Shown here piece by piece: positions 1,651 to 63,899 of a stretch of 64,000 nt of DNA (position 1 is its first letter; each line of letters starts with the position of its first letter). The stretch is from an uncultured Gammaproteobacteria bacterium (GTDB lineage: Bacteria > Patescibacteriota > Patescibacteriia > UBA9934): contig CAZMTL010000001.1 of the NCBI GenBank assembly GCA_964569575.1, positions 3,503 through 67,502 on the forward strand, written 5' to 3'. Under the pieces are notes generated by a model that was not told the DNA's origin, did no database searches, and saw nothing but the letters and a program-made list of their open reading frames with translations. A program made the position numbers and the translations under genes.

Positions 1651-1729
1651 ACCTAATAGCCCGTAGGCGTTGGTTGATTTGCTCATTTCTCCTTCTCGTG
1701 TTCTACTAGATAAAACTTCGGGGGTTGAG

Positions 1730-2104
1730 ATGAACGATGAACTACGGAGTTTGACTGCTTCGAGTGCTTCGAAGCGCCCGCGTCGTGTTCGGCCGCGGTG
1801 GTATCGGGTCGATCACGAAGGGTTTTTGGCCATTCGTAAGCCGACCATCCTGTGCTATTCCCCTCCTGTCAACTTGGACGAGACTGATGAGTTCGATCGG
1901 TGGCTTGCAGAACAAATCGCTCGCGACGCGTACGATTTGGAGATGGAGATTCGTTCGGAAGAATCGGCTTGGTCGAAATACCTGCTTGAAGCGGGATCGC
2001 TCGAACCGGCAGTCGAACGAGAACTCGGTCCCGAGCCACAGCCCGCGCACGAGGACACCATCCTCTCGCGATTTTGGCAGTGGGTCCTTCGTCTCATTCC
2101 CTAG
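1730..2104 (+). CDS. Hypothetical protein encoded in a GC-rich cassette
   Basis: ORF 1670..2104. Likely start ATG 1730 preceded by GGGGGTTGAG. High GC and high GC3 codon use contrast with the flanking genes. A hairpin plus T-run follows at about 2131..2158. Confidence 0.4.
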   Translation: MNDELRSLTASSASKRPRRVRPRWYRVDHEGFLAIRKPTILCYSPPVNLDETDEFDRWLAEQIARDAYDLEMEIRSEESAWSKYLLEAGSLEPAVERELGPEPQPAHEDTILSRFWQWVLRLIP

Positions 2105-2130
2105 CGCACTCCAACGATCGTGCTCGGGAC

Positions 2131-2158
2131 GTCACGGTGATCCGTGGCGTTTTTTTCT
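2131..2158 (+). terminator. Rho-independent terminator-like hairpin (cacgg-tgat-ccgtg) followed by a T-run
   Basis: Sequence gtcacggtgatccgtggcgttttttt lies directly after the 1730..2104 ORF. Confidence 0.45.
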
Positions 2159-2238
2159 TTTTGCACACTCTTTAGGTCATTATTGGAATATCGTCGCTGG
2201 TTCGTTATACTGATTCTATTATTCAATCAATCCATTTT

Positions 2239-2652
2239 ATGAAAAGCATTCTAAATCCTTATGTCAGCTTTAAAGACAATGCAAAGGAAGCGATGGAGTT
2301 TTATCATGGGATTTTTGGAGGTGAATTGACCATGAGTACGTTTAAAGAAGGTGGCATGTCGAACGATCCGGCGATCGACAACAATATTATGCATGCCATG
2401 TTGGTGACCGAGAGTGATTTTAAGTTGATGGCTTCGGACACGCCTCCGGGAATGGAATACACGCCTGGTGCAAATATTTCGATTTCGCTCAGCGGTGACG
2501 ACGACGCAGAGCTGCGTGGGTATTGGGAAGCGCTCGTTGAAGGTGGTACCGTTATCCTTCCATTCGAAATGGCTCCTTGGGGTGACTTCTTCGGAATGCT
2601 GACGGATAAGTTTGGCATTTCGTGGATGGTGAATATTTCGCCGAAGAAGTAA
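2239..2652 (+). CDS. VOC/glyoxalase-fold protein, PhnB/YjdN-like (3-demethylubiquinone-9 3-methyltransferase-like domain)
   Basis: 137 aa. Translation (FKDNAKEAMEFY..IFGG...HAMLV...SD.....PW) is typical of the PhnB-like VOC family. Confidence 0.55.
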   Translation: MKSILNPYVSFKDNAKEAMEFYHGIFGGELTMSTFKEGGMSNDPAIDNNIMHAMLVTESDFKLMASDTPPGMEYTPGANISISLSGDDDAELRGYWEALVEGGTVILPFEMAPWGDFFGMLTDKFGISWMVNISPKK

Positions 2653-2673
2653 CTTTGTAAATTCGTTTAATCT

Positions 2674-3084
2674 ATGTCAAAAATCACTCTACAAACTACC
2701 ATCAACTCACCTATCGAAACCGTCTGGCGAACGTGGACGTTGCCGGAACATATTACGAAATGGGCTTTTGCTTCGGATGAATGGGAATCACCTTGGGCAG
2801 AGAATGACGTGCGCGAAGGTGGAAAATTTGTCACACGCATGCAAGCGAAGGACGGAAGTGCTGGATTTAATTTTGGTGGAACTTATACGGCTGTAAAAAA
2901 TCACGAATTAATCGAGTACACGATGGACGATGGACGTACGGTTTCGATTCGCTTTGCGCCGACCGATAGCGGAACCGAACTTGTGCAAACATTTGATGCA
3001 GAAAAAGAAAATCCCGAAGAGATGCAACGACAAGGATGGCAGGCTATTTTGGACAATTATAAAAAGTATGTCGAAGCTCTTTAA
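2674..3084 (+). CDS. SRPBCC-superfamily protein (AHSA1/START/polyketide-cyclase-like)
   Basis: 136 aa. Motifs TINSPIETVWRTWT..P..ITKW are typical of the Aha1/YndB-like SRPBCC fold. Confidence 0.55.
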   Translation: MSKITLQTTINSPIETVWRTWTLPEHITKWAFASDEWESPWAENDVREGGKFVTRMQAKDGSAGFNFGGTYTAVKNHELIEYTMDDGRTVSIRFAPTDSGTELVQTFDAEKENPEEMQRQGWQAILDNYKKYVEAL

Positions 3085-3673: not shown

Positions 3674-3674
3674 T

Positions 3675-3959: not shown

Positions 3960-3973
3960 TCTCTAAACAGAGA

Positions 3974-14347: not shown

Positions 14348-14399
14348 ACAGCCTTACAATTATATTGACTTTTTTTGCTAACATGACTAGTATGCGGGG

Positions 14400-15842
14400 T
14401 TGCTTGGCAACAGCGCGTCATTCCGATGCGCTTACGAGAGGTGTCCATTGATTCGTATTAGCGAAGAAGTTCGTTCTGCCTGGACGGGCAACCACGATTG
14501 CCGGTATTCGTACGGCAATCTTCCTCCGGACTTTCTGGAGATTCTTGCCATGATGCGGGAAGCGTACATGGAGCGCATCACCTTCCCGAGCAAGGGTGAG
14601 ATGATGTCGTTCCTGCGTACCCGCGCGTACAACGACATTCGAGGTTCCCTCGATGAGCTCTTCCGGTTCCTCGAGAATCTTCGCTGCATCTACCGAGTCC
14701 GTGGCAAGTTCGCGTTCGACGGATCGCGTGCTACGACGGTTTCGATGTGTATTCGAGGCGATATCGAGCTGCCCGCGGTGAGCGCTGAACAGCTCTTGAA
14801 CCTGGAACGAAGCCTGGCCGTTCATTACGGCCTCGTACCTTCCTCGCGCAATCGCGTCGAGGACGCGAAGTTCGACCCGTTCAGCGAGATGGTTCAGCCG
14901 GATGGCGAAGGACTTGAGCTGGTTGCAGCGCTTTCGTTGCTGCCGGACGAGCTGCGTCAGTTCAACGTGATTCTGTCGCGTCTTTCGATCGACGGAGACG
15001 GTGTGCACGTATGGACGAAATCCGGCGAGCGCAGTCCGATCCTCGGTCAGCTCTGCGAGATGGGAATCGCTGTGGATTCTGGCGAGACGCGTGGCGACTG
15101 GTGTCGTTTCGATTTCGCTCAACGTCCTGATGCCCTTCATATCGTCGCGATTGATCAGCGCCTGCTCTTCGGGGTTTCGCAGCGATTGCACGACATGCTG
15201 AGCCGCTTCGTTGCGAGTTCTGACCCATTCGAATTGGAGCTCGCGCTTCTCGACGCGTTCGTGTACGACGAAGCAGTCGAGTGCGGACTGCTCGCCGCCC
15301 ATCCGTCGAACTCGAGCTGCCTGCCGGTGCTCGCGCCATTTCAGCCCTACGACTACTATGCGATCGAGCCGGTTTCGCTCGAAGTGCCTGTGATCGAGGA
15401 TGTTGCACCAATCGAGGTCGCTGCGCCGCCAACCATCACGAGCAATCGTCCAGCAGACGTAGATCGTGAGCGCCTGGCCCTTCGAGCACAGCTGCAGACC
15501 GAAGTAGCTGCAACTATCGCAGACATGAAGGAGACGACCTCCCGGATCACCGACTTCAAGGCCGAGCACGAGCGTGTGCGCCAGAAGTTCACCGAACAAT
15601 GCATTCTTCTTGCCGCACTGATTCGTGCAAACACCGAGTACACCGAGTACATCTGTTCAGATTTCGGCATCATCGTGCCCGAAGTGCGATTCGACTCTCA
15701 AGCCCGTAGTGCGCTCGAGGAACGCGAAATCCTACTAGAGCAGCTGCACGCCATTCCGCTCGTTCTCAAGTCCCTTGAAACGGATTTGGCGGCACTGAAG
15801 CTGCACCGAGCTGATCTGAAGGCGAAGCTCCGCAGGCTGTAG
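14400..15842 (+). CDS. Hypothetical 430-480 aa protein encoded by a GC-rich cassette, with a C-terminal coiled coil
   Basis: Strong GC3 codon bias on the + strand. The overlapping - strand ORF reads as antisense. A TTGACT-17-TAGTAT promoter lies at about 14366..14394. The real start may be ATG 14550, preceded by GGAG. No known domain. Confidence 0.45.
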   Translation: MLGNSASFRCAYERCPLIRISEEVRSAWTGNHDCRYSYGNLPPDFLEILAMMREAYMERITFPSKGEMMSFLRTRAYNDIRGSLDELFRFLENLRCIYRVRGKFAFDGSRATTVSMCIRGDIELPAVSAEQLLNLERSLAVHYGLVPSSRNRVEDAKFDPFSEMVQPDGEGLELVAALSLLPDELRQFNVILSRLSIDGDGVHVWTKSGERSPILGQLCEMGIAVDSGETRGDWCRFDFAQRPDALHIVAIDQRLLFGVSQRLHDMLSRFVASSDPFELELALLDAFVYDEAVECGLLAAHPSNSSCLPVLAPFQPYDYYAIEPVSLEVPVIEDVAPIEVAAPPTITSNRPADVDRERLALRAQLQTEVAATIADMKETTSRITDFKAEHERVRQKFTEQCILLAALIRANTEYTEYICSDFGIIVPEVRFDSQARSALEEREILLEQLHAIPLVLKSLETDLAALKLHRADLKAKLRRL

Positions 15843-15920
15843 CCCTGCAAACACACGAGCGCCCGCAACCACTTTCACGGTGGTCGCGGGCGCTGTTACT
15901 TTTATGGTGAATTTTTCTAT

Positions 15921-21946: not shown

Positions 21947-21984
21947 TTAAAACACTCCGCCTTTATGGTGGAGTGTTTTTTTGG

Positions 21985-22215
21985 AACCGAGGTTCGTTAT
22001 CGATTGACGCTCGACTTTCGCCGAGAGATCTCTCGAGAATGCTCAAGACGAAATATTGCCGCGCTTCGCTCGCAATGACAAGGTCGAAGTGCGCAACATG
22101 TCTCTCGCCGCTAACCACCCCTAGCCCCTCCTTGAAAAGGAGGGGGAAGCGCGTACGAAAAGCGATAGATCCCGGGTCGGAGCCCGGGATGACGAGGATT
22201 TGGCAATGCGCTATA
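21985..22215. repeat. Composite intergenic block of palindromic repeats (families D cgccgagagatctctc, A-variant cccctccttgaaaaggaggggg, and B gatcccgggtcggagcccgggatgacg)
   Basis: Shares about 40-bp blocks with 56920..57195. The ORF-track hit 21973..22233 is a translation of these repeats. Confidence 0.6.
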
Positions 22216-22243
22216 CTGAATTATATTCACTAACTTTCATTTT

Positions 22244-39967: not shown

Positions 39968-39983
39968 ATCGATGATTATTTCT

Positions 39984-40543: not shown

Positions 40544-40625
40544 ACTCTCTCGAGCGAGCGCGTCAAGGCGCGCTCGCTCGCTGACCCAGGTTTTCGGACC
40601 TGGGTCTTGCTTTTCCAAACCCAGC
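40544..40625 (+). terminator. Twin-hairpin 3' module (gagcgagcgcg..cgcgctcgctc and gacccaggttttcggacctgggtc), directly repeated after each pentapeptide gene
   Basis: Nearly identical copy at 41548..41630. Confidence 0.5.
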
Positions 40626-40725
40626 GAAACCTTGACTTTGTATTAATTTTCGTGCAGAATAATCAGTCGTTTTGGCAATGTGCTGAACGCGTTCACGGCC
40701 TTTCGGGGCAAAGGGGTCAGATACT

Positions 40726-41547: not shown

Positions 41548-41655
41548 ACTCTCTCGAGCAAGCGCGTTAAGGCGCGTTTGCTCGCTGACCCAGGTTTTCG
41601 GACCTGGGTCTTGCTTTTGGAGTGGAGTGATTGGTTTTGTGCGTGATGTTATGCA

Positions 41656-41690: not shown

Positions 41691-41739
41691 AGACCCTTCC
41701 TCTCTTCCACTTACCAAGGGGTCGTGCTTTATCGATCTC

Positions 41740-44700: not shown

Positions 44701-45048
44701 CAACTGCTGACGGAATGAAGAATACTTTTTCGCCACGTGCGTTAAGTTGTTGTCGATCAATGTCATCGAAACAACTTCTCGCACATCGGCACTGCTTGGT
44801 TCGGTGTGACCGTTGTAAATACGGTGCAAGCGATCGCCGACCTGTTCGGTAATTTTGCGGGCGCGGTCTTGCTCTCGCATGCCGGCAATTTCCATCGCCT
44901 TCACGACCGAAGCGTGCAGTTTGTCGTACTGAAATGATTGCGATTCACCATTTCGTTTTTTGATGCTTTTTACAGCAGTCATGTAATCCCACACAATGTC
45001 ACCGACGTTGCCGGTTTTTTGTTGTGTGTTTGTTGCGGACTGGTTCAT
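41740..45048 (-). CDS. nrdJ: Ribonucleotide reductase, monomeric class II (adenosylcobalamin-dependent, NrdJ-like) with N-terminal ATP-cone and C-terminal zinc ribbon
   Basis: 1102 aa. ATP-cone VKSIKKRNGESQSFQYDKL, active-site NPCSEYMFLDDSACNLASLNL, C-terminal CDTCGS...CYKCLNCGS. An in-frame repeat-derived segment SPSQGEARRGL sits in a linker. Confidence 0.8.
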   Translation of the reverse strand: MNQSATNTQQKTGNVGDIVWDYMTAVKSIKKRNGESQSFQYDKLHASVVKAMEIAGMREQDRARKITEQVGDRLHRIYNGHTEPSSADVREVVSMTLIDNNLTHVAKKYSSFRQQLAPSTTAEPKYGKGLVFDRYFTEEGIHPYKKIEWEMRTAKITNEKNAVIFEQNNIETPKTWSQTATNIVAQKYFRGKVGDADRETSMKQLIDRVAQTIAQWGRKDGYFQDARSATTFEEELTFILINQYAAFNSPVWFNLGTEPHPQCSACFINAVEDDMRSIMQLATTESMLFKGGSGTGSNLSKLRSSKEFIGGSNNKSSGPVSFMKGFDAFAGTVKSGGKTRRAAKMVMLNIDHPDILEFIHCKVREEKKAWALVDAGYDSSMDGEAYSSIFFQNANNSVRVSDEFMKAVENGARWTTKEVTTGNPSVEYDAKELFREMAQSAWECGDPGIQYDTTINNWHTSKNTDRINGSNPCSEYMFLDDSACNLASLNLMKYRKEVNGVMEFDVEAFKKAAEVVITAMEILVGNSSYPTPAIEKNSHDYRPLGIGFANLGALLMSRGVAYDSDEGRNMAGAIMALLSGQSYFQSTKAAEKIGPFAGFKKNAEPMMEVMQMHRKAAYEIDPNGVPAELLFEARKSWDNVIDGGVKHGIRNAQISVLAPTGTIGFLMDCDTTGVEPDIALVKYKWLVGGGMLKIVNGTVPEALARLGYTKEQVDAIIAFIDANDTIEGAPHISEEHLSVFDCAFKAKNGTRTIHYMGHVRMMAAVQPFISGAISKTVNMPKEATVEDVEHVYMEGWKMGLKAIAIYRDGSKRQQALTTSKEKDASKKDEVKKEATPLASASSPSQGEARRGLSEQTQVQMSIPTKTISYAGAPQRRRLPDERRSITHRFSIASHKGYLTVGLYDDGKPGEIFITMAKEGSVISGLMDSFATAVSIGLQYGVPLPVLVNKYVHKRFEPSGFTNNPNIRMAKSIVDYIFRWMALKFLSPEDQSKVGLNNLEVTGENKMTHGTAPANTEDLDDRIEVEEAIVPQPSQSAQASQSEPVKKIEAKPEVAEQVEAKAALTNTFDNSADAPACDTCGSIMVRNAACYKCLNCGSTSGCS

Positions 45049-45299: not shown

Positions 45300-45840
45300 G
45301 GCGAGAGTTGGCGCTGAAACAAAAGAGCCCCCTCGGAACACATCGGCAGGCGAACCTGCAAATGTGCCCGAGAGGGCGAGAGACCAGTGTATCTGTGCCG
45401 CCCCGTTGTTCTTCGCCTGGTCGGTATCGTGCGAAGAGGGCTCTGGTTGGCGGTGTCATGCGGAGGAAAACCAGAAAATCTTTTCCGCATGGTGACGCTG
45501 TTTACGGGTCACTCCGTTTGCCACCTGGTTCTCCCAGGGCTGGTTGGCTGTATTCGTGGTCTTCGTACTTGTGAACTACCAGCATTCACAAGCATATAGC
45601 GTCCTATTTCCCGGTCCGCGCAGGTCTGGTTGTTTTTTTACTTTTCCGCCTACTGGAGTACCAGCACTTCCTAGGCGCACCGACCAACAATTCACGGTGT
45701 CGGGACGTGGTCTCTCGATCTCGAGCTCGAGTCTGGGTGACTCTTTTCGTGCGGGCTTTACCAGTTTCATCCCCGCATATATCGACCAAACTCCTGGGTC
45801 GAACAGGTGTCCACCGCATCAACTATAGCGGCATGGACCG
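45300..45840 (-). ncRNA. Candidate structured non-coding RNA of about 540 nt (GC-rich, no ORF, own promoter); identity unknown
   Basis: Minus-strand promoter TTGACG-17-TACATT at + coordinates 45873..45845. No ORF over 95 aa with coding character. Many GNRA-type GAAA loops and a UUCG loop (GGCAGGUUCGCCUGCC), with stem-forming complementarity. Confidence 0.25.
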
Positions 45841-45965
45841 AAAGAATGTACTACATTTTTAACCGGTCGTCAAGTGCGAAGCCTACTTTCGCCTTGAATT
45901 ACTTGGCTTTTCTTGCGTAAATCAAATAGGCCCTATAGGTCGAATATGACCTATGGGACCTATTT

Positions 45966-47022: not shown

Positions 47023-47469
47023 TTAAATAAAATTTTTGAGCAGTATAATAAAACTACCTAACAATACAAAGATTCCTGATATTCCTGAAATAGATATGGC
47101 AATTATCTTGTTACGTCCCTCCTCTACCAAACTAACTGCGATAATGATTGAAATTATTAATAACGTGCATCCGAACAAAAACATACACATAGTAAATCCG
47201 ACTAATGCGCCTATCCCTGAGTCGATAGAAGCTAGCGCACCTATTCCTATACCTAACAAGGATATTATTAAAGCAGTTCGTATTTCGACCGCACTCACCA
47301 TTGTAACTATTTCTTTTTTATAATCTTTAAAGTCATTTTTAGATTCTTCCCGCTCTTTTTTTATCTCTTCTCTTAACTCTTTATACCTATCCATCACCGT
47401 ATTAGTAATTACGCTTCCAGTCGTTCCTGTTTCTTCCTTCACACCACTTGAAAAGATAGGAGTACTCAT
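47023..47469 (-). CDS. Hypothetical membrane protein, AT-rich
   Basis: 148 aa with 3 TM helices. GC is lower than the neighbours. Confidence 0.4.
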
Positions 47470-47471: not shown

Positions 47472-47852
47472 CTAAGCTTGTCCGACATCTAGAATCGCTA
47501 TATTATCAATCTTCTCTTGACCAAATTGAATGTTGAACCTATATCTTCCTACTTGATCAAAATTAAACTCAAATCCAAAGTAAAAATTCGCATCGCCCTT
47601 CCCATTAGTCATTTCAGGAATACTTCCATCCAATTCTCCCAACCGCCTCTCCTCTCCGGCGGGATTCTGAACAAAAAAAATCGCTCTGTTCTTTCCAGAT
47701 GGCAAGTTATTTAATTTACATACCAAGAATAGCTTCATCGTTGAGACACCGGTTAATGCCCCAATTACATCAACAAAAGACTGCTGTGGTGTGCCAAGGC
47801 CTCCTATCCATTGGCAAAGTAATCCGTATTGTTTCTCGATATTATTTTTCAT
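47472..47852 (-). CDS. Hypothetical protein, AT-rich
   Basis: 126 aa. Adjacent to the previous gene and likely co-transcribed with it. No known motif. Confidence 0.4.
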   Translation of the reverse strand: MKNNIEKQYGLLCQWIGGLGTPQQSFVDVIGALTGVSTMKLFLVCKLNNLPSGKNRAIFFVQNPAGEERRLGELDGSIPEMTNGKGDANFYFGFEFNFDQVGRYRFNIQFGQEKIDNIAILDVGQA

Positions 47853-48187
47853 ATTTTTGCCCTTCCCCCTTCACCACCTTCGCGCGGGCGTCGATTACTT
47901 TTTTCTTGGATTTGCCTACGATCTTTCCCCAGATCCAGTCGCGTACTCGTGGAATCGAAAGGATCCAGAGGAGTCCGGAGAGGAGTGCGAGGAAGCCGCG
48001 GACGAAGAGGGCGAAGAGTTTTTTCATAGAGGAATGGTTGGTGATTTTCTTTCATTATCGCACAGAATCACATTCTGCACATGTCACCGTAGGCGAAGCG
48101 AATAGATCCCCGGCACTAAAGGCCGGGCAGGCTTTCACTTTGTTCAGGATGACAAGGTGAGGCGTGTTGAGTTGAATCGCGATGCCG

Positions 48188-48270
48188 CGACCCCCTGTCG
48201 TCCCCCTTGGTAAGGGGGACACAGGCTTGCGGCGTTTCCTCCCCTTACCAAGGGGAGGCTAGGAGGGGTC
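48188..48270. repeat. Palindromic repeat family A (twin hairpins cccccttggtaaggggg and cctccccttaccaaggggagg)
   Basis: A near-identical inverted copy lies at 56809..56893. A half-copy sits inside nrdJ at 42495..42543. ORF 48207..48473 is a translation artefact (SPYQGEARRGL). Confidence 0.7.
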
Positions 48271-48312
48271 TTCTTGGAGAAAATGTTCGCAAGAGTCTGC
48301 ATTGCGCAAACC

Positions 48313-50225: not shown

Positions 50226-50287
50226 TGGTCATTGCGAGGAGTGCTGCGACGAAGCAATCTTTTACTTCGCTGCGCTCGCAATGACGG
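50226..50287. repeat. Palindromic repeat family C copy (ggtcattgcgaggagtgctgcgacgaagcaatc ... ctcgcaatgac)
   Basis: Same orientation as 39984..40076. Lies between dnaK and grpE. Confidence 0.65.
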
Positions 50288-50300
50288 ATTGAAATGAAGT

Positions 50301-51611: not shown

Positions 51612-51928
51612 TTTTGATTCGTCAAGAGTCTAAAAAGGGTTGTGAGTGGATGGTTTTTGAAGAGCTGGAATTTTGAGGGGTTGAGGCCTGTGTTACGCAG
51701 AATAGTGCTTACGCTTGAGTTACTTATTCCGTCATCCCGGACTCGATCCTGGATCCATCGGTCTTCACTTTCGCTTCCCCCTCCTTTTCAAGGAGGGGTT
51801 AGGGGTGGTTACGCGCTGTTTGAGCGCAATCTTGAGCGCATATTGTGGTTGACTTTTTATCTAAAATCTGTTACTCTTTTCTGTTTCCGGACGGCCTTGA
51901 AATGGTGATTTCCCGGAAAGGAGGAGAT

Positions 51929-52399
51929 ATGGTTCAGACCACTGTTCGTAACCCGCTTGTGACTGCCGTCACGAACAAGCTGCTTCGAATCGTCGAGATT
52001 CGTGAAGACAATCGAGGACACGAAAAGATCGAGGTCCTATGGCGATATCTCGGCACAAGTCGTCACGATCGAGAGCAGCTCGCCGGGCTCGGCCTGATCA
52101 TCGAGGGATCGTGCCTGATGGTGCGGCTTCCGCCAAGGCCGGGTGCCTACGAGGGGTGGAACGGTGACGAATTCATCTTGACTCGTCTTTCGCTCCCGCT
52201 CGAGCGCGCCGTGACTTCGAGTGGCGGAGCAACCTTCCTCCACACCTACTGCCCGCAGAACGATTCCCGTGCCATCAATGCTCGGCTTCCGCGGGGAGTG
52301 GCCCGATTGGTTCAGCCGGATCGTCAGGAATTCGAGATCCGCAACATCGAGTGGCAAGGGCTTCCGCGAAGCGCCGCTGACCTGGGGTTGCGGCGCTAG
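51929..52399 (+). CDS. Hypothetical protein encoded by a GC-rich cassette
   Basis: ATG 51929 after AAAGGAGGAG, with TTGACT-17-TACTCT upstream. ORF track 51845..52399. High GC3. No known domain. Confidence 0.45.
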   Translation: MVQTTVRNPLVTAVTNKLLRIVEIREDNRGHEKIEVLWRYLGTSRHDREQLAGLGLIIEGSCLMVRLPPRPGAYEGWNGDEFILTRLSLPLERAVTSSGGATFLHTYCPQNDSRAINARLPRGVARLVQPDRQEFEIRNIEWQGLPRSAADLGLRR

Positions 52400-52492
52400 A
52401 TGACTGGATATTTCAGAACAGGGCACGCGCGAGGGGCTTGGAAACAAGCCCCTCTTTTTGTATCGAAAAAAGAGCCCGCAGGCTCTTTTTTG

Positions 52493-56689: not shown

Positions 56690-57240
56690 TTAATTGTTGT
56701 AAGTATAACACAATTGATTTTTGTAATGCGATGCTCGCCGTCGCGTGTTGTACTTGGATGGTCGTTGGTTGTATTGATGAAGAAAAGTGGATCGCTGTTT
56801 TTCGAGAAGACCCCTCCTAGCCTCCCATTGGTAAGGGGAGGAAGCGCTGCAGGCTCGTGTCCCCCTTACCAAGGGGGACGACAGGGGGTCGCGTGACGCA
56901 TTCGCGTTCGATTATCGCGGAACCTCCCCTCCGTCCTTCGCTAAAGCTTCGGAGGACCCACCCGTAGCCTTGGCGAAGGAGGGGAAGCGCGTTTTGATCT
57001 TCGCCGAGAGATCTCTCCACTTCGCTCGGCTTCGCCTCACTTCGGTCGAGATGGTGATGTTTTAATTATGTTCCTACTACTTAGAGCATCTTTTTTTCTT
57101 ACCATCTCGACCGAACGAAGTGAGCGGAGAGATCTCTCGTGTGCGCTCGAAGCGAAATAAGCGATGGATCCCGGGTCGGGGCCCGGGATGACGGAGATGA
57201 TAGAGGCGCGTCGTGAGTAGGGATTGTTAGATCATTCGAG
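56690..57240. repeat. 550-bp cluster of nested palindromic repeats (families A, D and B plus a large inverted repeat 57030..57135)
   Basis: The family A copy at 56809..56893 is inverted relative to 48188..48270. Family D cgccgagagatctctc occurs twice, 56995-57025 and 57116-57140. Family B is at 57166..57192. Confidence 0.7.
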
Positions 57241-57293
57241 TCACTATATATCAAAACAAAAGACCCGCTCCTGAGAGCGGGTCGTGGGTTGCG

Positions 57294-57902
57294 TTACAGG
57301 GGTACGCATGGGTGCCTCGGTGAGAAGAAGATCATGCCCGTTCGGCGTGTAATCTTCCCTTCTGGTGGGCCGAAGGACTGACCTGGGTACAGGTAGGCTA
57401 CCTGTACAAGCCAACCTTCGTTCGAAAAACTGACGCGATAACCGATCGTGACCGTGCTGGTCGGATTGACCGGCTCCTTCACTTCGTCCGTTCGAAACAT
57501 GAGTGCTTGCGCGCTCCAGAACGGATTCGATTCCATCAACTCCCGATTCTTGAAGACGCCTTCCCGCAGGTACGTCGCGAGATCGAACGGCACCGTTCCG
57601 TGTCGAGGTACCGCCATCGGCCACCCCACCGGATGATCAAATGCCATCTCGATCTCTGCCCTTGCCGCGTGACGCTTCGCGTTGTCAGCGAGCGTTGCGT
57701 CGATCACCTTCTGCACGTGTCGCAGCAACTTGCCGAGCACGGCTTCGGACTCGAGCATTCCCATTACCGAACGCCACTTGGTGATTCGTCCCGGTCCCGG
57801 CCCTTCCATGCTGAACACGGCATTGGCCAGCCATCGACGAAGTTCTTCGCCGACAGCGATTACCACCGGAGCACCGTCCGGCAAACGCGTGATGACGGGC
57901 AT
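57294..57902 (-). CDS. Hypothetical 202-aa protein, second gene of a GC-rich two-gene operon
   Basis: ATG preceded by GGAGG 5 nt upstream, 19 nt after the stop of 57922..58215. A terminator hairpin gacccgctcctgagagcgggtc lies at about 57250..57275. High GC3. Confidence 0.45.
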   Translation of the reverse strand: MPVITRLPDGAPVVIAVGEELRRWLANAVFSMEGPGPGRITKWRSVMGMLESEAVLGKLLRHVQKVIDATLADNAKRHAARAEIEMAFDHPVGWPMAVPRHGTVPFDLATYLREGVFKNRELMESNPFWSAQALMFRTDEVKEPVNPTSTVTIGYRVSFSNEGWLVQVAYLYPGQSFGPPEGKITRRTGMIFFSPRHPCVPL

Positions 57903-57921
57903 GCCGCCTCCATTGCACTTG

Positions 57922-58215
57922 CTAGTGCTCGGTGTAGAGTTCTACTTCCCTACGGTCACTTGGAAAATCCCAGGCGCCGGTGTCGCAGAAGATGTGTACG
58001 CTGTAGCTCTGTGCTTCGGTGAAGACCTTCACCATCTCGAAGAGCACGCTGTACACCTCCAGAACTCGCAACAAGTCAGCCTTCGAGACCTGCACCTCGA
58101 GCACAAATATTCCTACCTTCACCGCCCACTTCACACTCAGACTCTCCGGCTCGTTGATCAGACAGCTGAGCATCTCATGAACCGATGCGATTTGTTCTGG
58201 CCGTGGTGCATTCAT
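57922..58215 (-). CDS. Hypothetical 97-aa protein, first gene of a GC-rich two-gene operon
   Basis: ATG preceded by AAAGGAGAAGCA and a TTGACA-17-TAGAAA promoter (minus strand, about 58230..58260). Confidence 0.4.
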   Translation of the reverse strand: MNAPRPEQIASVHEMLSCLINEPESLSVKWAVKVGIFVLEVQVSKADLLRVLEVYSVLFEMVKVFTEAQSYSVHIFCDTGAWDFPSDRREVELYTEH

Positions 58216-58298
58216 TGCTTCTCCTTTGACGACCGCTATTTCTACCAGTTCACACGGTTTTTGTCAATCAAAAATCCACCGGTAAGGGTGGATTTTTG

Positions 58299-59273
58299 CT
58301 ACTTATCAATACACGTACCTAGTAGCTCCGCAGATGGATATTGCTTTATGTGCCATTCACTTTCCGAAATTCGATCGCCCATGAATAGCAACTGATAGAT
58401 GTTTCCTGCCCGCAGTTCTTCAATCGTCGTCTGAACCTTGTCTTTATTTTCAAAACGGCATGTTCCTTCGTCTTTTTCGTAACTTCTATCATTTACGAAA
58501 TAATGCAGAAGGTACGCATCACCGTCTTTCTCGGTCGAGATATCTATGACTTGCTGGTAGCCGCTAGTTACTGAATTATCTATCTTTCCAGAAATCATTT
58601 GATCAACTTCTACAGCGCTATAAAAGCACTCCGTGTCCTGTTCGCAGTTCATCAACGTTTCGCTTACAGGTATTGATCCCAAATTCGTATTTGTGATCCC
58701 TAATCCCTTTGCACGCATTAGTTCGTACGCGTCCTGAGCGCGACCCAAGTAATAGCGACGATTGTCTTCGGGATTTACCCACCAAGCTTCTCCGCGGCTT
58801 TCGACTTGAAGGAAAATTTTTCCAGATTGCTGACGAGCGAATGAATGGTCGAATTTTGATCGCTGTGCTTGAACGAGTGGATTGTAGTCGTTTTGAACTT
58901 CGACGCCGTCGTTGTAACCATCGTTATCGCTATCTGAATCATTTGGATTTGTTCCGATCGCCTGTTCCATCGCGTCAGTTAAGCCATCATTGTCCGCATC
59001 CCAGTTACTTAATTTATAGTAGCCGATTGGGATCCGTTCTAAATTTGCATTTGTGATTCCGACTCCTTGTCCGCGCATAATTTGATACGCGCTGTCTGCT
59101 CGGTAAAGAAAGTGACGTTCTTTTGTTTCGGGATTTACGTACCAAGCTTCACCGTTCTGCTCGACCTGAAGCAAGATCTTTCCCGCAACGTTGTCGCGCA
59201 CCGAAGCGGCTTGCGCATTAGCAAACGGCACGAGTGCGGAGGCAATTAATAAAACGGCGGCTACTTTTTTCAT
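58299..59273 (-). CDS. Secreted repeat protein, paralog of 252..1286 (two GKILLQVE..GEAW(Y/W)VNP...YYL domains separated by TSP3-like DxDxDG repeats, plus a Cys-containing C-terminal domain)
   Basis: Signal peptide MKKVAAVLLIASALVPFANAQA. The same domain order as the left-edge gene. Confidence 0.65.
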   Translation of the reverse strand: MKKVAAVLLIASALVPFANAQAASVRDNVAGKILLQVEQNGEAWYVNPETKERHFLYRADSAYQIMRGQGVGITNANLERIPIGYYKLSNWDADNDGLTDAMEQAIGTNPNDSDSDNDGYNDGVEVQNDYNPLVQAQRSKFDHSFARQQSGKIFLQVESRGEAWWVNPEDNRRYYLGRAQDAYELMRAKGLGITNTNLGSIPVSETLMNCEQDTECFYSAVEVDQMISGKIDNSVTSGYQQVIDISTEKDGDAYLLHYFVNDRSYEKDEGTCRFENKDKVQTTIEELRAGNIYQLLFMGDRISESEWHIKQYPSAELLGTCIDK

Positions 59274-59401
59274 AGAAAACTATTTTTTATATTCTATCAC
59301 GATCACCTCAATCGATCATACGCTCGACTTCGAGTATCTGGATAACTTTTTAAACAAAGAACGCCCCGAGCCGAGAGCAGGACGCTCTTCGGCTGTGGGC
59401 G

Positions 59402-59966
59402 CTAGGGTTCGGACGCTTCGTTCAGCTTCAGCCCGAACTGGTGCAGGAAGTAGAAGACTTCGTCACACTCTGCCTTCGGCATGTTGCGGGAGGTGAGGTC
59501 CCACTCGCGCGCGTTGAGCAGATCGGCCATCGTGCTGATGCCGAACTCGATCAGTCGTGCGTGCGCGGATGTGCTCAACGTGCAGCGCGGGCGCAGGCTG
59601 GAGTCCCGCAGAACTTCCAGGATGGTCTTGGTTCGCAGGTCGGCGATGCGCGAGGCGCTTGGCACTCCGCTCTTCCATCCCATGATCTGCATCACTGGGC
59701 ACAGCTCGGTGACCGCCTTCAGCACTTCGGGCGTGTTCGGCAGGTAGAAGATGTGCTCGACGCGCTGCGTTCGTCCTTGTGGCGTGTGGACCATGATCAC
59801 GTCCGCGAACCGTGACGGATCGTCGTCGCGAATGCGTCCCTCGATGATGGCATGCCGCTCCTGTCGGTAGGCCAGGTCGGCAACAAGACGGTACGCAGCA
59901 GACTGTTCATCCACTTGATCGGTGTGGCAACCGTGGTATCCATCGACGTAAAACGTCCACTTGATC
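59402..59966 (-). CDS. Hypothetical protein encoded by a GC-rich cassette, with a C-terminal RNA-polymerase-alpha-CTD-like HhH domain
   Basis: ORF 59402..60127 trimmed to ATG 59966 (MIKWTFYVDGY), which has AGGAGG upstream and a TTGACC-17-TAGAGT promoter. C-terminal LSTSAHARLIEFGISTMADLLNAREWDLTSRNMPKAECDEVFYFLHQFGLKL. Confidence 0.45.
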
Positions 59967-60129
59967 ATGTCGTCCTCCTGTCGCAAGCGACAATTGACTC
60001 TAGCGAATTTACTCAAGCCGGTCAAACGAAAGAGCATTCTAATTGTAATCGCATTCAGCTTTTTCGCCTGTATTTTCCCGTTGACACTCCCCTCTTTTTC
60101 CCCTATTCTATCGACACAATTCGCCACAC

Positions 60130-60204
60130 GGTCCCATCGTCTAACGGTTAGGACGCCAGGTTCTCATCCTGGTAATCGGGGTTCGATTCCCCGTGGGATC
60201 ACCA
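60130..60204 (+). tRNA. tRNA-Glu (anticodon CUC)
   Basis: Cloverleaf read by hand. Acceptor GGTCCCA/TGGGATC, D-arm GTC..GAC, anticodon stem CCAGG/CCTGG with loop TTCTCAT, T-arm CGGGG-TTCGATT-CCCCG, discriminator A, encoded CCA. A terminator-like hairpin lies at 60209..60234. Confidence 0.85.
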
Positions 60205-60341: not shown

Positions 60342-60926
60342 CTAAATAACATGAAGAGTTCCGATAACACCGTTCCGTATTCTGGACTGTAGTAACTTCT
60401 TCACAAGCAGACTCCAATCATCCCCATGATCAGGAAATTTAACAGTAACACATCCCTGGCTTATTGTTCCGAAATGTATATATCTCTGCGTACGAGCACC
60501 GTTCTCTTTTAATAACGGGAACCACACATTAGCCGCCTTGCTACCACCAGCCTTTTCATCTAAGTAGTTTTCTTTTATTAAGTCATTAACAGGATGTTCC
60601 GGCAAAAGCACATAATACGTCCCTGATTTAATACGTCGTGACGAACATACGACATTAATTGCCCCAAAACCATCGATAAGTAATTGATTATTATTTTGCA
60701 TGTATTTGATATCCACTCCGTCAGAATAATCAAATAAACCAAACTCTAATGATTCTGTAATATTTAATCTTTGTCCACTATAGCGACCCTCACTAATTAT
60801 ATATTCATTGTTTCGGTGAATTATTTTTGTATAATTCGGAATATAAAAATTGGTACCATCCGACAATTTTAATCTGCACCAATTAGAATCATTTACCCGT
60901 CTGAATACTCCTTCCTGAAGGCTCAT
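60342..60926 (-). CDS. Hypothetical protein with an L,D-transpeptidase/Tlde1-like His...Ser-x-Gly-Cys motif (YIHFGTISQGCVTV), encoded in an AT-rich islet
   Basis: 194 aa. About 33 % GC, against 42-47 % in neighbours. Motif resemblance only. Confidence 0.35.
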   Translation of the reverse strand: MSLQEGVFRRVNDSNWCRLKLSDGTNFYIPNYTKIIHRNNEYIISEGRYSGQRLNITESLEFGLFDYSDGVDIKYMQNNNQLLIDGFGAINVVCSSRRIKSGTYYVLLPEHPVNDLIKENYLDEKAGGSKAANVWFPLLKENGARTQRYIHFGTISQGCVTVKFPDHGDDWSLLVKKLLQSRIRNGVIGTLHVI

Positions 60927-61918
60927 ACCGAATCTTCAATGTAAGAATATGCTGATTGAACCAGTTGAATGAAATTTTCGTCAGAATTATATCGCTGAAT
61001 TAGCTCCATTCTCTCTGGCCAAGTCAAGAGCATAGAATCCATAAAATATTCTTCAACTGCCATGCGAATCGACTCTTTATCACTAATATATTTGGGAGAA
61101 TTGACCTGCATAACGCCATACGTACCCTGTTTGACGATAAACGATTTTAACCACTCTACCTTACGAAGCCAAGCTGGTCGCTGTAATGACTCAACTAAAC
61201 AGACTGCAAGTACGAGTTTTTTGTCAGCCCGATTAGCAATCGAAAATTCGTCAATATATTGTTTTATCCGGATACTTATTTTGTTTGACAATTTTTCGAA
61301 AATGTCTGATTCATCAACGTGATTCGCACGATACTGCCTGTATCCATAAACAGCTATTAGCGCAGCTAATGCTGCTGACCAGGTATTGTCAACTACATTG
61401 CTAAAGTCAGGCGCGATTGCTTGTCCGAAAGATGAAACTCCTAGAATCGCAGCCATTAAACCACCAAGAAGACAAATTAGGATTATGAAAAAATGGTAAA
61501 TGATTTGATTTGGCTTATTAAAATACGTCTTTACCCCGTCTTCTCCGAAAAATAATTTTTTTAAGGAAAGACCGTTTGTAGATATTGCGTGTACAAGCGC
61601 TGTCAATAATCCCAAATAAATAACGTCCCGTTGTGGTTTATCCTCTGCCACAACAGCCAAAATTGGCGTTAATATGATCATTATTGGGAGTAAACGAAAA
61701 CTAATAAATCGAAAAGGCGAGACCGATACATAGATACTAGTTTGATCCGATAGTGAAAAATAAAATGTAGGCCATTTTATTTTAACTAGTTCATACACAA
61801 GTCTGAGCAAGTAGCATGCCAGAGCACCAGCAAAGATATAATGCGCATAGTGATTAGCGGTCAGTCGATCAAGAAGTGAAAGCATGAATTGATAAGCTTG
61901 TAATACGAAATCTGGCAT
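60923..61918 (-). CDS. Membrane-anchored protein with a C-terminal lytic-transglycosylase-like (SLT family 1) motif
   Basis: 331 aa. About 5 TM helices, then LVESLQRP....GTYGVMQVNSPKY (E-S...G-hydrophobic-MQ-V pattern). Overlaps the downstream gene by 4 nt. Confidence 0.45.
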   Translation of the reverse strand: MPDFVLQAYQFMLSLLDRLTANHYAHYIFAGALACYLLRLVYELVKIKWPTFYFSLSDQTSIYVSVSPFRFISFRLLPIMIILTPILAVVAEDKPQRDVIYLGLLTALVHAISTNGLSLKKLFFGEDGVKTYFNKPNQIIYHFFIILICLLGGLMAAILGVSSFGQAIAPDFSNVVDNTWSAALAALIAVYGYRQYRANHVDESDIFEKLSNKISIRIKQYIDEFSIANRADKKLVLAVCLVESLQRPAWLRKVEWLKSFIVKQGTYGVMQVNSPKYISDKESIRMAVEEYFMDSMLLTWPERMELIQRYNSDENFIQLVQSAYSYIEDSV

Positions 61919-62101
61919 ACATATCTAGTCTATCATCTCTTTGCCCGAGTCTCTATATCTCTGCATTGGCATCGCGTCAGTGCTGTGCAAGAGCCAGCCC
62001 TGTTTGTTTACTTCAGTCATAAATCCCTTCCAACCAAATTCCAAACAAAGAACCGCCCCACAAGAGGCGCCGAGGGGCGGTTCGTGGTGGCGGTTGAGTT
62101 G

Positions 62102-62434
62102 TTACGTTTGGCCGTGCGTCTGTGTGGCCTTCAGGAAGAGTTCGCGGGTCTTTCCCACGAACGGCGCGTCTTGGAACGAGGCGTGCTTTGGCCACGGGAT
62201 TGCGATCAGGCCAATCAGCCAGCTGCGCTCGCTTTCGCTCGAGGTCGCGTAGCGCTCTTCGAGCTCGTGCGCGTACTGGCTTCGGAATTCAGGCCGCATG
62301 CGCGAATCCACAACGATCCAGAGCAGCACATGCATGTAGAATTGATAGTCTGAGTCGACCATCTCTTCGACCAACTCGGTGTAGTTGGGATGTTCGCCAA
62401 CAAATCGCTCATCAACGGAATAATCCAGCATCAC
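62102..62434 (-). CDS. Hypothetical 110-aa protein, GC-rich cassette
   Basis: ATG after AGGATAGGTG. Divergent from the 62615 gene, with a shared TTGACA-containing intergenic region. Terminator hairpin gaaccgcccc...ggggcggttc at 62049..62085. Confidence 0.4.
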   Translation of the reverse strand: MMLDYSVDERFVGEHPNYTELVEEMVDSDYQFYMHVLLWIVVDSRMRPEFRSQYAHELEERYATSSESERSWLIGLIAIPWPKHASFQDAPFVGKTRELFLKATQTHGQT

Positions 62435-62614
62435 CTATCCTTGCATGTTAGTCATTCAGCACGACGACTCACAATATCACGATTTAAGTATTTGTCAATT
62501 TAGCTCAGCTTAACTCCGCCCCCCCCCTGCGACATTGACAAAGCGCTCAAAAATGGCTATTATTCGCGCCGAATGGTGACGATTTTGTTGCCTTCTGAAC
62601 GCCCGAGGTTCTTC

Positions 62615-63079
62615 ATGATCGCTTCTCTTCTGCTGATGTTCGGCGCCAACGCCAACCCTGTGACGGACGCGCCCGTGAAGTGGGATCCAATCGTGGAGCC
62701 GGCCCCGACCGTCAAGCCGAACCCGCACGTCTCCCCTGCCACCAGTCGGCTGGAAGCGCCGCAGATCGAGCTGATGGCGGCGGCTGAGATGCGTTACGGT
62801 CGGAAGTACGACCTGGTGCTGGTGAACGTCGACGCGACCAATCCCGGGAAGGACGGCTGGCGGACCTGTGGTCGTATGACCATCGAGCAGTTCGGCATCC
62901 TGCCCGAGGTTCCGGCCGTCTTACTCAACAAGCAGAACGAGCCGTGCGGCGATCACCCCAATGATCCCCTCGCGCTCGTGATGGTGGTGGGACCGACCGG
63001 TTTCCACGAAGCCATCATGCTCCCGAGCAAAGGATCGGAATACACCAAAGTCGAGCTGGCGATCATTCAGCTCGACTAG
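62615..63079 (+). CDS. Hypothetical secreted 154-aa protein, GC-rich cassette
   Basis: ORF 62573..63079. Preferred start ATG 62615 (GAGG 8 nt upstream) gives signal-peptide MIASLLLMFGANANP. Promoter TTGACA-17-TATTAT at about 62537..62565. Confidence 0.45.
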   Translation: MIASLLLMFGANANPVTDAPVKWDPIVEPAPTVKPNPHVSPATSRLEAPQIELMAAAEMRYGRKYDLVLVNVDATNPGKDGWRTCGRMTIEQFGILPEVPAVLLNKQNEPCGDHPNDPLALVMVVGPTGFHEAIMLPSKGSEYTKVELAIIQLD

Positions 63080-63273
63080 CTCACACACCCACGACACAAG
63101 AGCCACTCAGCTTTTGCCTCGCCGGGTGTGTTCTTGTTTTTATTAAATAAGCTTGTTTTAAGGCTTTTGGCTTGATTTTTCTTTCAAACTGTGTTAGTCT
63201 GTGATGTTGGCTTTTTTGGTGGTTCGCTTGGTTTATTGATGGTAAATCGCGCGAAACACCGTAGGAGTCACTC

Positions 63274-63804
63274 ATGTTCTTCTTCATTTCTACCTTCGCC
63301 TTGGCCACCGAACCCGACCTCATCGAGGTCGAGAAGCACGATCCCGAACCGAACACCGCATATTTCTTGCGGGTGCTCGGGGGCGGGCACATGCAGCCCG
63401 ACTACGGACCGATCCGCAAGGGCGTCAGCCCTTCGATCAGCCTCGGAGCAGGAGTCGAGTTCCGCGAGCCTGGACTCGCCATGGTGCAGGTCGCTCTCGA
63501 CCTCACCTACTTCCCCATCACGAAGGGTTACGGAGGACGGCACACGGCCGTTCTCGGGTACCCCTGGCAGCACTTCTCCATTTACGGAGGGGTTGGCCAC
63601 CAGCTCGAGACGCATCTTGGGCCTCTGTGGCTCGATGCGTACTCGGCGCTCGCCGTCGTGGGCGCCGACGCGCGCGCGGGTGATCGACTGGCCGTCTCCA
63701 TCGAAGGATGGTGTTCGGCTGGTAGCGCCTCCAAGCGCGAAGAAGGGTCGTTCGTCGCGTCTTGCGGCGGGAATGTGGGACTGAAGGTCCTGCTTCCGAA
63801 GTAA
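63274..63804 (+). CDS. Hypothetical 176-aa protein, beta-rich and possibly outer-membrane-barrel-like, GC-rich cassette
   Basis: ATG after GTAGGAG. Promoter TTGATT-17-TAGTCT. Alternating hydrophobic beta-strand patterns. A GC-rich hairpin plus T-run lies at about 63806..63860. Confidence 0.4.
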   Translation: MFFFISTFALATEPDLIEVEKHDPEPNTAYFLRVLGGGHMQPDYGPIRKGVSPSISLGAGVEFREPGLAMVQVALDLTYFPITKGYGGRHTAVLGYPWQHFSIYGGVGHQLETHLGPLWLDAYSALAVVGADARAGDRLAVSIEGWCSAGSASKREEGSFVASCGGNVGLKVLLPK

Positions 63805-63899
63805 CGCGCACTCGCGCGGCAAAGAGCACTCGCTCTCGCCGCTCGGGTGCTTCTTTGTTTTTACTCTACATTCTTCGCAACATTTGCTACACTTTTTGC

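Follow-up and report, generated by a model that had tools for sequence, protein, structure and literature searches.

Compositional islets are well known, as are phage morons, the 'more DNA' elements of the HK97/HK022 type (PMC3594210). The islets reported here, which we call cassettes 1 to 8, lie in a stretch of 64,000 nucleotides of contig CAZMTL010000001.1 (assembly GCA_964569575.1), referred to below as the window, from an ultra-small, Uhrbacteria-like bacterium of the candidate phyla radiation (CPR; Patescibacteria). They are real, contiguous DNA and genuine coding sequence, rich in guanine and cytosine (GC), and they hold mostly orphan genes that are mutually unrelated apart from one tandem duplication. 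Islets of 55-65% GC also fill the variable inter-operon slots of relatives whose genomes have 43-54% GC. We hold with moderate confidence that they are moron-like accessory islets whose source is a GC-rich gene pool peculiar to this CPR clade. Bacteria of the CPR are very small episymbionts, most of them uncultured, and little is known of their hosts, accessory functions and modes of gene exchange.

The islets resemble phage morons in carrying one or two genes with their own sigma70-type promoter and intrinsic terminator (both signals predicted here) and a GC content unlike that of their neighbours, and in the position of cassette 5, which sits between the genes for a Kef-type transporter and HrcA that are adjacent in the relatives L008 and L009. 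Unlike morons, they occupy a housekeeping region (dnaK operon, ribonucleotide reductase, glmS, murein genes and recQ) with no phage genes near, their orphan genes have no homologs in the phage databases searched, and they are more GC-rich than their host. The slot of cassette 3, which encodes a HAD-like protein, is moreover filled by a homolog in a distant relative. The islets also share with the alien genes and genomic islets of Lawrence and Ochman an atypical GC content, GC at third codon positions (GC3) and oligonucleotide usage, an apparently patchy distribution among relatives, and a location in variable slots, one of them by a tRNA gene. They differ from such genes in lacking donor homologs and in showing no amelioration, though at least one unit is probably ancient, and the recurrence of ~55-65% GC across hosts of different GC content points to a shared pool or process rather than to random donors.

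Integron cassettes are likewise units of about one gene with a mixed cargo mostly of unknown function; the islets, however, have no attC, intI, attI or Pc, are not arrayed, lie on both strands and have their own promoters. Compared with classical genomic islands (>10 kb, with a tRNA gene, an integrase and direct repeats), the islet units are small (0.5-1.8 kb), with no integrase and no flanking direct repeats, and only cassette 7 adjoins a tRNA gene (tRNA-Glu). In streamlined free-living bacteria such as Pelagibacter and Prochlorococcus, core synteny is broken, as it is here, at fixed slots by fast-evolving genes that are peculiar to a strain or species and mostly lack a known function. Those hypervariable regions span tens of kb, whereas the islets are single units of ~0.5-2 kb that are strongly GC-enriched. 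What is unusual here is the combination of a chromosomal, non-phage CPR setting, high density, GC-rich inserts and near-total orphan status, together with recurrence across the clade and one case of long-term positional conservation in which GC is still high. We found nothing relevant on such islets in the literature on Uhrbacteria or Patescibacteria.

Composition, anatomy and continuity of the islets

An earlier note on this DNA, made from its letters alone, had reported eight sharply GC-rich segments, and this description holds: the segments have 54.6-58.2% GC against 45.4% in the rest of the window (47.0% for the window as a whole), and the comparison of GC, GC3 and tetranucleotide usage that the note proposed separates the islets from the host DNA on all three measures. 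After the start codons of the cassette genes were refined via Shine-Dalgarno sites, the eight loci comprise 11 transcription units (8,685 bp, 13.6% of the window) and 12 genes. These genes have a GC content of 0.53-0.63 and a GC3 of 0.54-0.80, against 0.449 +/- 0.035 (maximum 0.514) and 0.446 +/- 0.064 for 43 host genes, and the cassette and host gene distributions do not overlap (Mann-Whitney p = 1.5e-7). Between the pooled cassettes and the host, the GC-normalised dinucleotide distance (delta*) is 108, where host subsets of equal size give a null of 28 +/- 9 (maximum 51), and tetranucleotide usage in the cassettes correlates with that of the host at 0.78, below the null of 0.93 +/- 0.016. 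Since delta* and the tetranucleotides remain shifted after GC normalisation, the difference exceeds GC alone. By the compositional criterion for alien genes, atypical base composition together with an atypical oligonucleotide signature, the cassettes are alien.

Pooled over the cassettes, GC at the three codon positions is 63.7, 42.2 and 69.2%, a periodicity that marks them as real coding sequence. The summed fraction of Ala, Arg, Gly and Pro is 0.26-0.34 in 10 of the 12 cassette proteins. A scan of the window against Rfam, at gathering thresholds and then at E <= 0.05, matched a tRNA-Glu (60130-60204) and nothing else, so the GC-rich segments are not known RNAs.

Each segment had also been described as a self-contained expression unit, and the sequence predictions fit this account, with promoter, Shine-Dalgarno site and terminator present. 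The three promoters quoted in the earlier note were located at 14365-14393 (TTGACT-17-TAGTAT), 32080-32108 (TTGACT-17-TATATA) and 62535-62563 (TTGACA-17-TATTAT), and a predicted sigma70-like -35/-10 pair lies upstream of nine of the 11 units. The hairpin terminators are borne out throughout: every unit has a predicted hairpin with a T-tract no more than 70 nt past the stop codon, with folding energies (dG) of -18.5 to -45 kcal/mol (z -2.1 to -7.5). The strong Shine-Dalgarno sites attributed to all cassettes were recovered in part, an AGGAGG-type site preceding at least seven of the 12 starts. Segment 8 is indeed GC-rich, but it consists of three separate units, including a minus-strand gene (62102-62431) that had been overlooked; two of the units share a divergent promoter region, and an AT-rich spacer separates the third. 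Promoter matches of at least 10/12 also occur upstream of the host recQ, a glycosyltransferase gene, hrcA and tRNA-Glu. Near-consensus promoters were rejected as a special mark of the cassettes because host genes carry equally good ones, and as monocistronic units the cassettes simply follow the expression style of the host.

Physical continuity was assessed with Logan contigs, which are independent per-run assemblies from SRR15237806. At 100% identity, contig L095 (1576-3462) spans both junctions of cassette 1, L046 (50958-54198) both junctions of cassette 5, L001 (57197-58306) both junctions of cassette 6, L096 (39105-40939) the left junction of cassette 4, and L097 (62945-64000 and beyond) the right junction of cassette 8. 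Assembly chimerism, which had been raised as one explanation of the segments, is thereby excluded for the junctions checked, and it is implausible in general because the GC steps coincide with the promoter and terminator boundaries of the units.

Protein products and counterparts in relatives

Pfam recognises the two pentapeptide-repeat proteins and the HAD-like protein that had been noticed from the translations. PF00805, the family of tandem A(D/N)LXX repeats, matches the products of 40726-41547 (E 2e-57, 190.8 bits) and 40175-40543 (E 3e-5, 23.7 bits; cut-off 20.2), and the larger of the two has matches in the Protein Data Bank (PDB) down to E 2e-44, including designed pentapeptide-repeat proteins, Nostoc Np275/276 and Qnr. 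Both pentapeptide proteins have relatives elsewhere, viral contigs included. The 313-amino-acid HAD-like protein matches PF00702 (E 4e-15, 57.1 bits) and PF13419 (E 3e-14, 53.8 bits). A domain like the C-terminal domain of the RpoA alpha subunit (alpha-CTD) had been proposed for the 188-amino-acid protein of cassette 7; it finds some support in phmmer against the PDB and in Foldseek, but there is no PF03118 match even at E <= 1. In the phmmer search nine of 13 matches are alpha-CTDs, all at residues 130-185 (E 0.07-0.8). The top Foldseek matches are alpha-CTDs as well, the best being 1z3e_B (TM-score normalised to the target 0.88, root-mean-square deviation 1.4 A), with 1lb2_E at 0.82 and E-values of ~0.02-0.08; the query, a single-sequence AlphaFold2 (AF2) model, has a mean predicted local distance difference test score (pLDDT) of 59, rising to ~67-84 in four 10-residue blocks at residues 131-170. 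The evidence that this C-terminal domain resembles an alpha-CTD is thus weak but consistent.

The remaining nine cassette proteins, the 188-amino-acid protein among them, are orphans in every search run, the exhaustive search being that for the 430-amino-acid protein of cassette 2 only. In that search, phmmer against 1.84 billion representatives of ~15 billion proteins returned only the query itself, and a word-index homology search of a large protein collection with the 188-amino-acid protein likewise matched only itself. For the other seven orphans the searches covered Pfam and further family libraries, records of phages and plasmids, and the loci retrieved from relatives. All orphans but the 188-amino-acid protein, eight in number, have no Pfam match even at E <= 1 and no PHROG, PADLOC or NCBIfam match, the 109-amino-acid protein of cassette 8a having been scanned against Pfam only. 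With tblastn, none of the nine orphans has a match among 50,697 phage or 72,556 plasmid records; the PHROG scan, run with the HAD protein and eight of the nine orphans, returned a generic HAD family as its sole match; and a scan of IMG/VR viral contigs with the 202-amino-acid protein of cassette 6 and the 430-amino-acid protein gave nothing. Orphan proteins fall into 90%-identity clusters holding copies from this genome only, and the AF2 model of the 202-amino-acid protein is uninformative (pLDDT 38). Paralogy among the cassettes was considered and rejected, only the two pentapeptide genes being related to each other. The suggestion that such islands are prime candidates for defence functions was not borne out by PADLOC, which matched none of the nine cassette proteins scanned (HAD plus eight orphans; 40175-40543, 40726-41547 and 62102-62431 were not scanned).

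The islets sit among housekeeping genes, which comprise the hrcA-grpE-dnaK-dnaJ region, glmS and the gene for class II ribonucleotide reductase as well as recQ and genes for Dus, ABC transporters, a Mur ligase and a penicillin-binding protein. DnaK, GrpE, HrcA and Kef are 41-82% identical to proteins of Uhrbacteria or Patescibacteria metagenome-assembled genomes (MAGs), and the best matches of the Kef-type transporter (52-59% identity), together with a syntenic dnaK region, lie in MAGs labelled Candidatus Uhrbacteria or Patescibacteria. The gene order common to the relatives is ion channel, Kef, a variable slot, hrcA, grpE, dnaK, a second variable slot and dnaJ. Four MAG contigs (L003, L005, L007 and L009) are titled 'uncultured Gammaproteobacteria bacterium' and have the CPR-type synteny Kef, hrcA, grpE, dnaK; their Kef proteins are 52-59% identical to those of the window and of Uhrbacteria-labelled MAGs. 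Their labels look wrong, evidently by mistake.

Comparison of syntenic slots covered cassettes 3 and 5-8. In the distant relatives L008 and L009 (Kef 52-59% identical) the gap between Kef and hrcA measures 45-67 bp, against 3.1 kb here, where cassette 5 lies between them. All 12 cassette proteins are unmatched in the 89 relatives' loci, and an unfiltered phmmer search with the cassette proteins against 144 open reading frames (ORFs) of the eight closest loci gave no match. The earlier proposal of repeated foreign acquisition accordingly fits cassettes 5-8, which have no counterpart in the relatives' syntenic loci, but not the HAD cassette, which is positionally conserved.

Homologous loci in relatives with the same GC-rich genes had been named in advance as evidence against foreign acquisition, and the HAD cassette has such a GC-rich homolog in the same slot of a distant relative. 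The protein, P0011, is the only homolog found among 5.8 billion protein clusters (29% identity, E 1e-20) and is encoded in GCA_964415145.1, the MAG that also holds L009. Its locus reads flavokinase (-), 2-oxoglutarate (2OG)-Fe(II) oxygenase, HAD (+), Mur ligase (-) and penicillin-binding protein (-), and the flanking orthologs are 36-50% identical to their counterparts in the window. The gene has a GC of 0.55 and a GC3 of 0.60, with flanks at 0.45-0.48, and the unit has its own predicted TTGACA promoter, AAGGAGG site and terminator. As the homolog is GC-rich in the same slot, its GC-richness is not simply recent import; either the HAD unit is old, or the slot may have been refilled repeatedly from one pool. 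Motif I reads FDLMF in the window and VDMGH in P0011 (the latter from a by-eye translation), and with the second Asp of DxD missing in both, phosphatase activity seems doubtful. The 2OG-Fe(II) oxygenase gene beside P0011 (L108 2475-3368 / L109 115-1008; GC 0.60, GC3 0.69) is absent from the window; being both GC-rich and of a known family, it indicates that the GC-rich islets of the clade are not all orphans.

Across the clade, GC islands make up 9-31% of the length in six of eight Uhrbacteria-like loci of at least 9 kb, and 0-5% in most other CPR loci. The flagged island ORFs of the relatives have a GC of 0.54-0.65, and most of them a GC3 of 0.62-0.85, in genomes of 43-54% GC, and nine of 10 GC-rich ORFs tested against Pfam have no domain. 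That island GC might track host GC was rejected, the islands having ~54-65% GC at any host value. The pooled tetranucleotide usage of the relatives' GC-rich ORFs correlates at r 0.80 with the cassettes of the window versus 0.57 with its host DNA.

Among the relatives, a sister genus (L006, L007, L008 and L011; core proteins 85-99% identical) holds 2 to ~12 GC-rich genes in the slot upstream of the ion-channel and Kef genes (L006 4885-9437, L007 1-9378, L008 5540-7028, L011 4068-6782). The slot contains a tandem family of paralogs of ~250-310 amino acids, with no Pfam domain and 21-56% identity among members, and this family has no profile similarity to the 430-amino-acid protein. The ratio of non-synonymous to synonymous divergence (dN/dS) of this family is 0.24-0.42, compared with 0.02-0.03 for core genes, which identifies its members as real and fast-evolving genes. 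One small GC-rich gene pair has a dS of 0.43 versus 1.27 for the core, which suggests exchange after the lineages split.

The window also has AT-rich islets. One lies between dnaK and dnaJ (small ORFs at 47023-47469, GC 0.34, and 47472-47852), and the relatives too have low-GC ORFs in or beside the dnaK region. A second, at 60342-61918 beside tRNA-Glu and between cassettes 7 and 8, holds two genes of 194 and 331 amino acids (GC 0.36-0.38, no Pfam match). The variable slots therefore accept inserts of both compositions.

Origin of the islets

On the reading that we prefer, moron-like islets from a clade-restricted pool, a GC-rich accessory pool would circulate within the clade, or the clade would sample such a pool repeatedly. 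Units might enter permissive inter-operon slots by ordinary recombination, either illegitimate or guided by flanking homology, and the strong deletion bias of a streamlined genome would pare inserts down to the smallest unit able to express itself, each unit then being expressed, like a phage moron, without regard to its neighbours. Such a cargo is mixed: a putative alpha-CTD-like protein that may interact with DNA or RNA polymerase, two pentapeptide-repeat proteins of presumed beta-helix fold, a HAD-fold protein without the second Asp of motif I, one or two small proteins that look secreted, and six further orphans. The HAD unit, at least, is probably old, not recent. A bolder and more tentative version is possible, in which self-expressed, fast-evolving orphans in the inter-operon slots of Uhrbacteria-like genomes form a distinct compartment of ~60% GC that has long stayed GC-rich in chromosomes of 43-54% GC, the HAD unit being the example. 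Such a compartment would require either a clade-specific, GC-rich mobile pool or replicon, possibly tied to a host, or a gene-specific process that raises GC, for example recombination-associated biased conversion.

Several points weigh against a shared pool. We found neither a donor nor a vector, nor any signature of recombination, and the pool is thus something we infer and do not observe. In tetranucleotide usage the cassettes resemble one another (r 0.74) no more than they resemble the host (0.69-0.76), and although delta* is 49 between halves of the cassette set versus 107-120 to the host, a single common source is supported by this dinucleotide measure only. The HAD case could equally reflect vertical descent under some force that keeps GC high. 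The promoters and terminators are predictions, and no relative with a Kef above 59% identity was found in the genome or metagenome collections searched, which leaves no short-range empty-site comparison.

Recent and independent transfers from an unrelated bacterium of ~60% GC, possibly the episymbiont's host and perhaps Planctomycetota-like, with no drift yet, would account for the composition of the cassettes. Under the Muto-Osawa and Lawrence-Ochman regressions, cassette codon positions 1, 2 and 3 imply a genome of 59.9, 57.5 and 60.0% GC, while host genes imply ~46%; a donor at ~60% that is concordant at all three positions gives no sign of amelioration. The absence of cassettes 5-8 from the relatives' syntenic loci fits as well, and among 56 reference loci the closest is that of a Planctomycetaceae MAG (L041; delta* 58, next 94; tetranucleotide r 0.86), a lead only, as the panel was very small and consisted largely of CPR loci, and coding DNA of high GC in general scored 0.76-0.86. 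Recent transfer should nevertheless leave recognisable homologs, and there is none for the 430-amino-acid protein among the 1.84 billion representatives, none for the 188-amino-acid protein, and for HAD only the 29% match, which lies in a relative's syntenic slot; we consider this origin unlikely. We give somewhat less credence still to native, vertically inherited, fast-evolving genes whose GC is actively kept, whether by biased gene conversion in accessory slots or by selection on codons or mRNA. The HAD unit speaks for it, being GC-rich in the same slot of two lineages whose flanks are 36-50% identical, a divergence at which its synonymous sites must have turned over many times, as do the GC-rich genes of the sister genus, which persist at a dS of ~1.3-1.4, like core genes. 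Most cassettes, however, have no counterpart in the relatives' syntenic slots, GC1 and amino-acid composition are shifted too and not GC3 alone, and we know of no established gene-specific effect of 25 GC3 points in bacteria.

Decayed prophages or other mobile-element remnants, that is, true phage morons, would explain the anatomy exactly, with own promoter, own terminator and a GC unlike that of the neighbours (PMC3594210), and pentapeptide-repeat genes do occur on viral contigs. Yet the window has no phage, integrase or transposase genes, and the orphans are unmatched in phage and plasmid records, in PHROG (eight of nine orphans) and in IMG/VR (202- and 430-amino-acid proteins). Mobile DNA is also usually more AT-rich than its host, where these islets are 13 points more GC-rich, and we rate such remnants improbable. 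An unusual mechanism of cassette capture had been offered as well, and its sole support is that small gene units of foreign composition are numerous here. They are spread over 62 kb on both strands, with promoters of their own; no integrase, transposase or other recombinase was found among the proteins of the 64-kb window; apart from the usual signals of promoters and terminators, no motif is common to the cassette ends; and their 3' ends are ordinary terminators with no attC-like imperfect palindrome or core-site pattern. Target-site duplications and flanking inverted or direct repeats do not exceed shuffled controls at any cassette except for one pair at cassette 1, and transposon-like ends were rejected on the same grounds. 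Integron-like or other dedicated site-specific capture is effectively refuted for this window. An assembly or binning chimera, which the sharp GC steps on a metagenome-assembled contig might suggest, is hardly credible either, given the Logan contigs, the agreement of GC steps with unit boundaries and the like pattern in relatives from other studies.

If the islets reflect plain sporadic horizontal transfer, the finding is an ordinary one. The dense set of GC-rich orphans shows where in the genome interactions with host, phage or environment are most likely mediated, and its measurable composition of ~60% GC can serve to trace a donor, vector or host through the same metagenomes. As a rule, DNA that bacteria acquire from outside is richer in AT than their own. 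The reverse pattern seen here, with its apparent persistence in one slot, would inform the evolution of base composition in reduced genomes.

Individual cassettes and neighbouring repeats

Cassette 1 (1670-2160, +) carries a gene at 1730-2104 (GC 0.57, GC3 0.60) for a 124-amino-acid orphan with a basic N-terminus, ahead of a terminator at 2130-2156 (dG -21 kcal/mol); its promoter is unclear, and the two members of the protein's 90%-identity cluster both come from this DNA. A 16-nt inverted repeat (15/16; TTCCTAAAATGGATTG / CAATCCATTTTATGAA) at 1628-1643 and 2228-2243 brackets the cassette, one arm falling within the final codons of the gene upstream, the other overlapping the start codon of the gene downstream. 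The pair beats all 60 shuffles, and no other cassette has one like it. In cassette 2 (14365-15894, +) the TTGACT-17-TAGTAT promoter at the left end is followed by the gene for the 430-amino-acid orphan (14550-15842; GC 0.58, GC3 0.69) and a terminator at 15857-15894 (dG -31.6 kcal/mol, z -5.0); by eye, the C-terminus of the protein is coiled-coil-like. Cassette 3 (32080-33122, +) stands between a flavokinase gene (31665-32036, -) and glmS (33150-34973). It begins with the TTGACT-17-TATATA promoter and has a GGAGG Shine-Dalgarno site, the HAD-like gene at 32140-33081 (GC 0.57, GC3 0.70) and a terminator at 33092-33122.

The two pentapeptide-repeat genes of cassette 4 (40084-41618, +), at 40175-40543 (122 amino acids) and 40726-41547 (273 amino acids), stand in tandem with a GC of 0.56-0.57, promoters at 40084-40112 and 40632-40660, and terminators at 40583-40614 and 41587-41618. 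The repeat units are 82% identical in the promoter and 85% identical over a 176-nt 3' repeat, and the cassette is a tandem duplication of a pentapeptide-repeat gene with its promoter and 3' end. Cassette 5 (51849-52461, +; GC 0.60, GC3 0.68), in the Kef-hrcA slot, has a promoter-like TTGACT-17-TACTCT at 51849-51877, an AAGGAGG Shine-Dalgarno site, a gene at 51929-52399 for a 156-amino-acid orphan and a terminator at 52431-52461. Cassette 6 (57253-58267, -) has a TTGACA-17-TAGAAA promoter at 58239-58267, directly abutted by the terminator of the upstream host gene, and two genes, 57922-58215 (97 amino acids) and 57294-57902 (202 amino acids), with GC values of 0.53 and 0.59 and GC3 values of 0.69 and 0.68; its terminator is at 57253-57283.

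Divergent from tRNA-Glu, cassette 7 (59352-60025, -; GC 0.61, GC3 0.79) comprises a TTGACC-17-TAGAGT promoter at 59997-60025, an AGGAGG site, the gene for the 188-amino-acid protein at 59402-59968 and a terminator at 59352-59401. Cassette 8a (62043-62498, -; GC 0.56, GC3 0.73) has a TTGACA-16-TATTGT promoter with an extended TG at 62471-62498, a gene at 62102-62431 for the 109-amino-acid orphan and a terminator at 62043-62080 (dG -26.3 kcal/mol). Cassette 8b (62535-63141, +; GC 0.61, GC3 0.80) opens with the TTGACA-17-TATTAT promoter, an 11/12 match, and encodes a 168-amino-acid orphan at 62573-63079, with a terminator at 63084-63141; judged by eye, the N-terminus of this protein may be a signal peptide (FFMIASLLLMFGANA|NP). 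Cassette 8c (63185-63862, +; GC 0.63, GC3 0.77) has a weak or unclear promoter, an AGGAG Shine-Dalgarno site, a gene at 63274-63804 for a 176-amino-acid orphan and a terminator at 63808-63862 (dG -30.5 kcal/mol, z -5.5). It is followed by the host pyruvate kinase gene, the next called gene carrying the Pfam PK domain. A terminator tail, GGG(C/G/T)(G)..TTCTTTGTTT, is shared by cassettes 7 (59352-59367, -), 8a (62043-62058, -) and 8c (63845-63860, +), with a near variant in 8b. Three matches compare with 0.32 expected, for a pattern derived from these very sites, and the common tail hints that the neighbouring cassettes 7 and 8 may share an origin.

GC spikes at 21970-22230, 48150-48300 and 56700-57250 are caused not by cassettes but by non-coding palindromic repeats. 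Families of such GC-rich intergenic repeats, like repetitive extragenic palindromes or miniature inverted-repeat transposable elements, occur at 21970-22230, 39983-40075, 41699-41721, 48186-48281, 50226-50290, 51730-51811 and 56798-57200 (examples are AGACCCCTCCTAGCCTCCCCTTG..AAGGGGAGGAAGCGC, GCCGAGAGATCTCTC, GATCCCGGGTCGGRGCCCGGGATGAC and GGTCATTGCGAGGA...GACGAAGCAATCT), and several adjoin cassettes 4, 5 and 6. The segment 56700-57250 consists of ~550 bp of nested repeats with no ORF. Within the gene for class II ribonucleotide reductase (ORF 41740-45048, -), one copy of the palindromic repeat, at 42494-42534, keeps the reading frame and is translated as ...PLASASSPSQGEARRGLSEQ...; it falls in the linker that joins the barrel domain (residues 264-806) to the TSCPD domain (residues 894-981) and recalls the Rickettsia palindromic elements that insert into coding sequence. 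Upstream of the same gene, a region of ~400-850 nt (45491-45900, -) is ORF-poor with a GC of 0.52-0.59; Rfam gives no match for it, and it folds only marginally more stably than shuffled sequence (z -1.9). A leader or regulatory RNA is conceivable, as is no function at all.

Near opposite ends of the window lie two paralogous genes for secreted-looking proteins with bacterial TSP3 repeats, at 192-1286 (+) and 58299-59273 (-). At the DNA level the pair shows inverted repeats of 60-69 nt with ~70% identity, and a homolog at 50% identity in L003 has kept its position relative to Kef.

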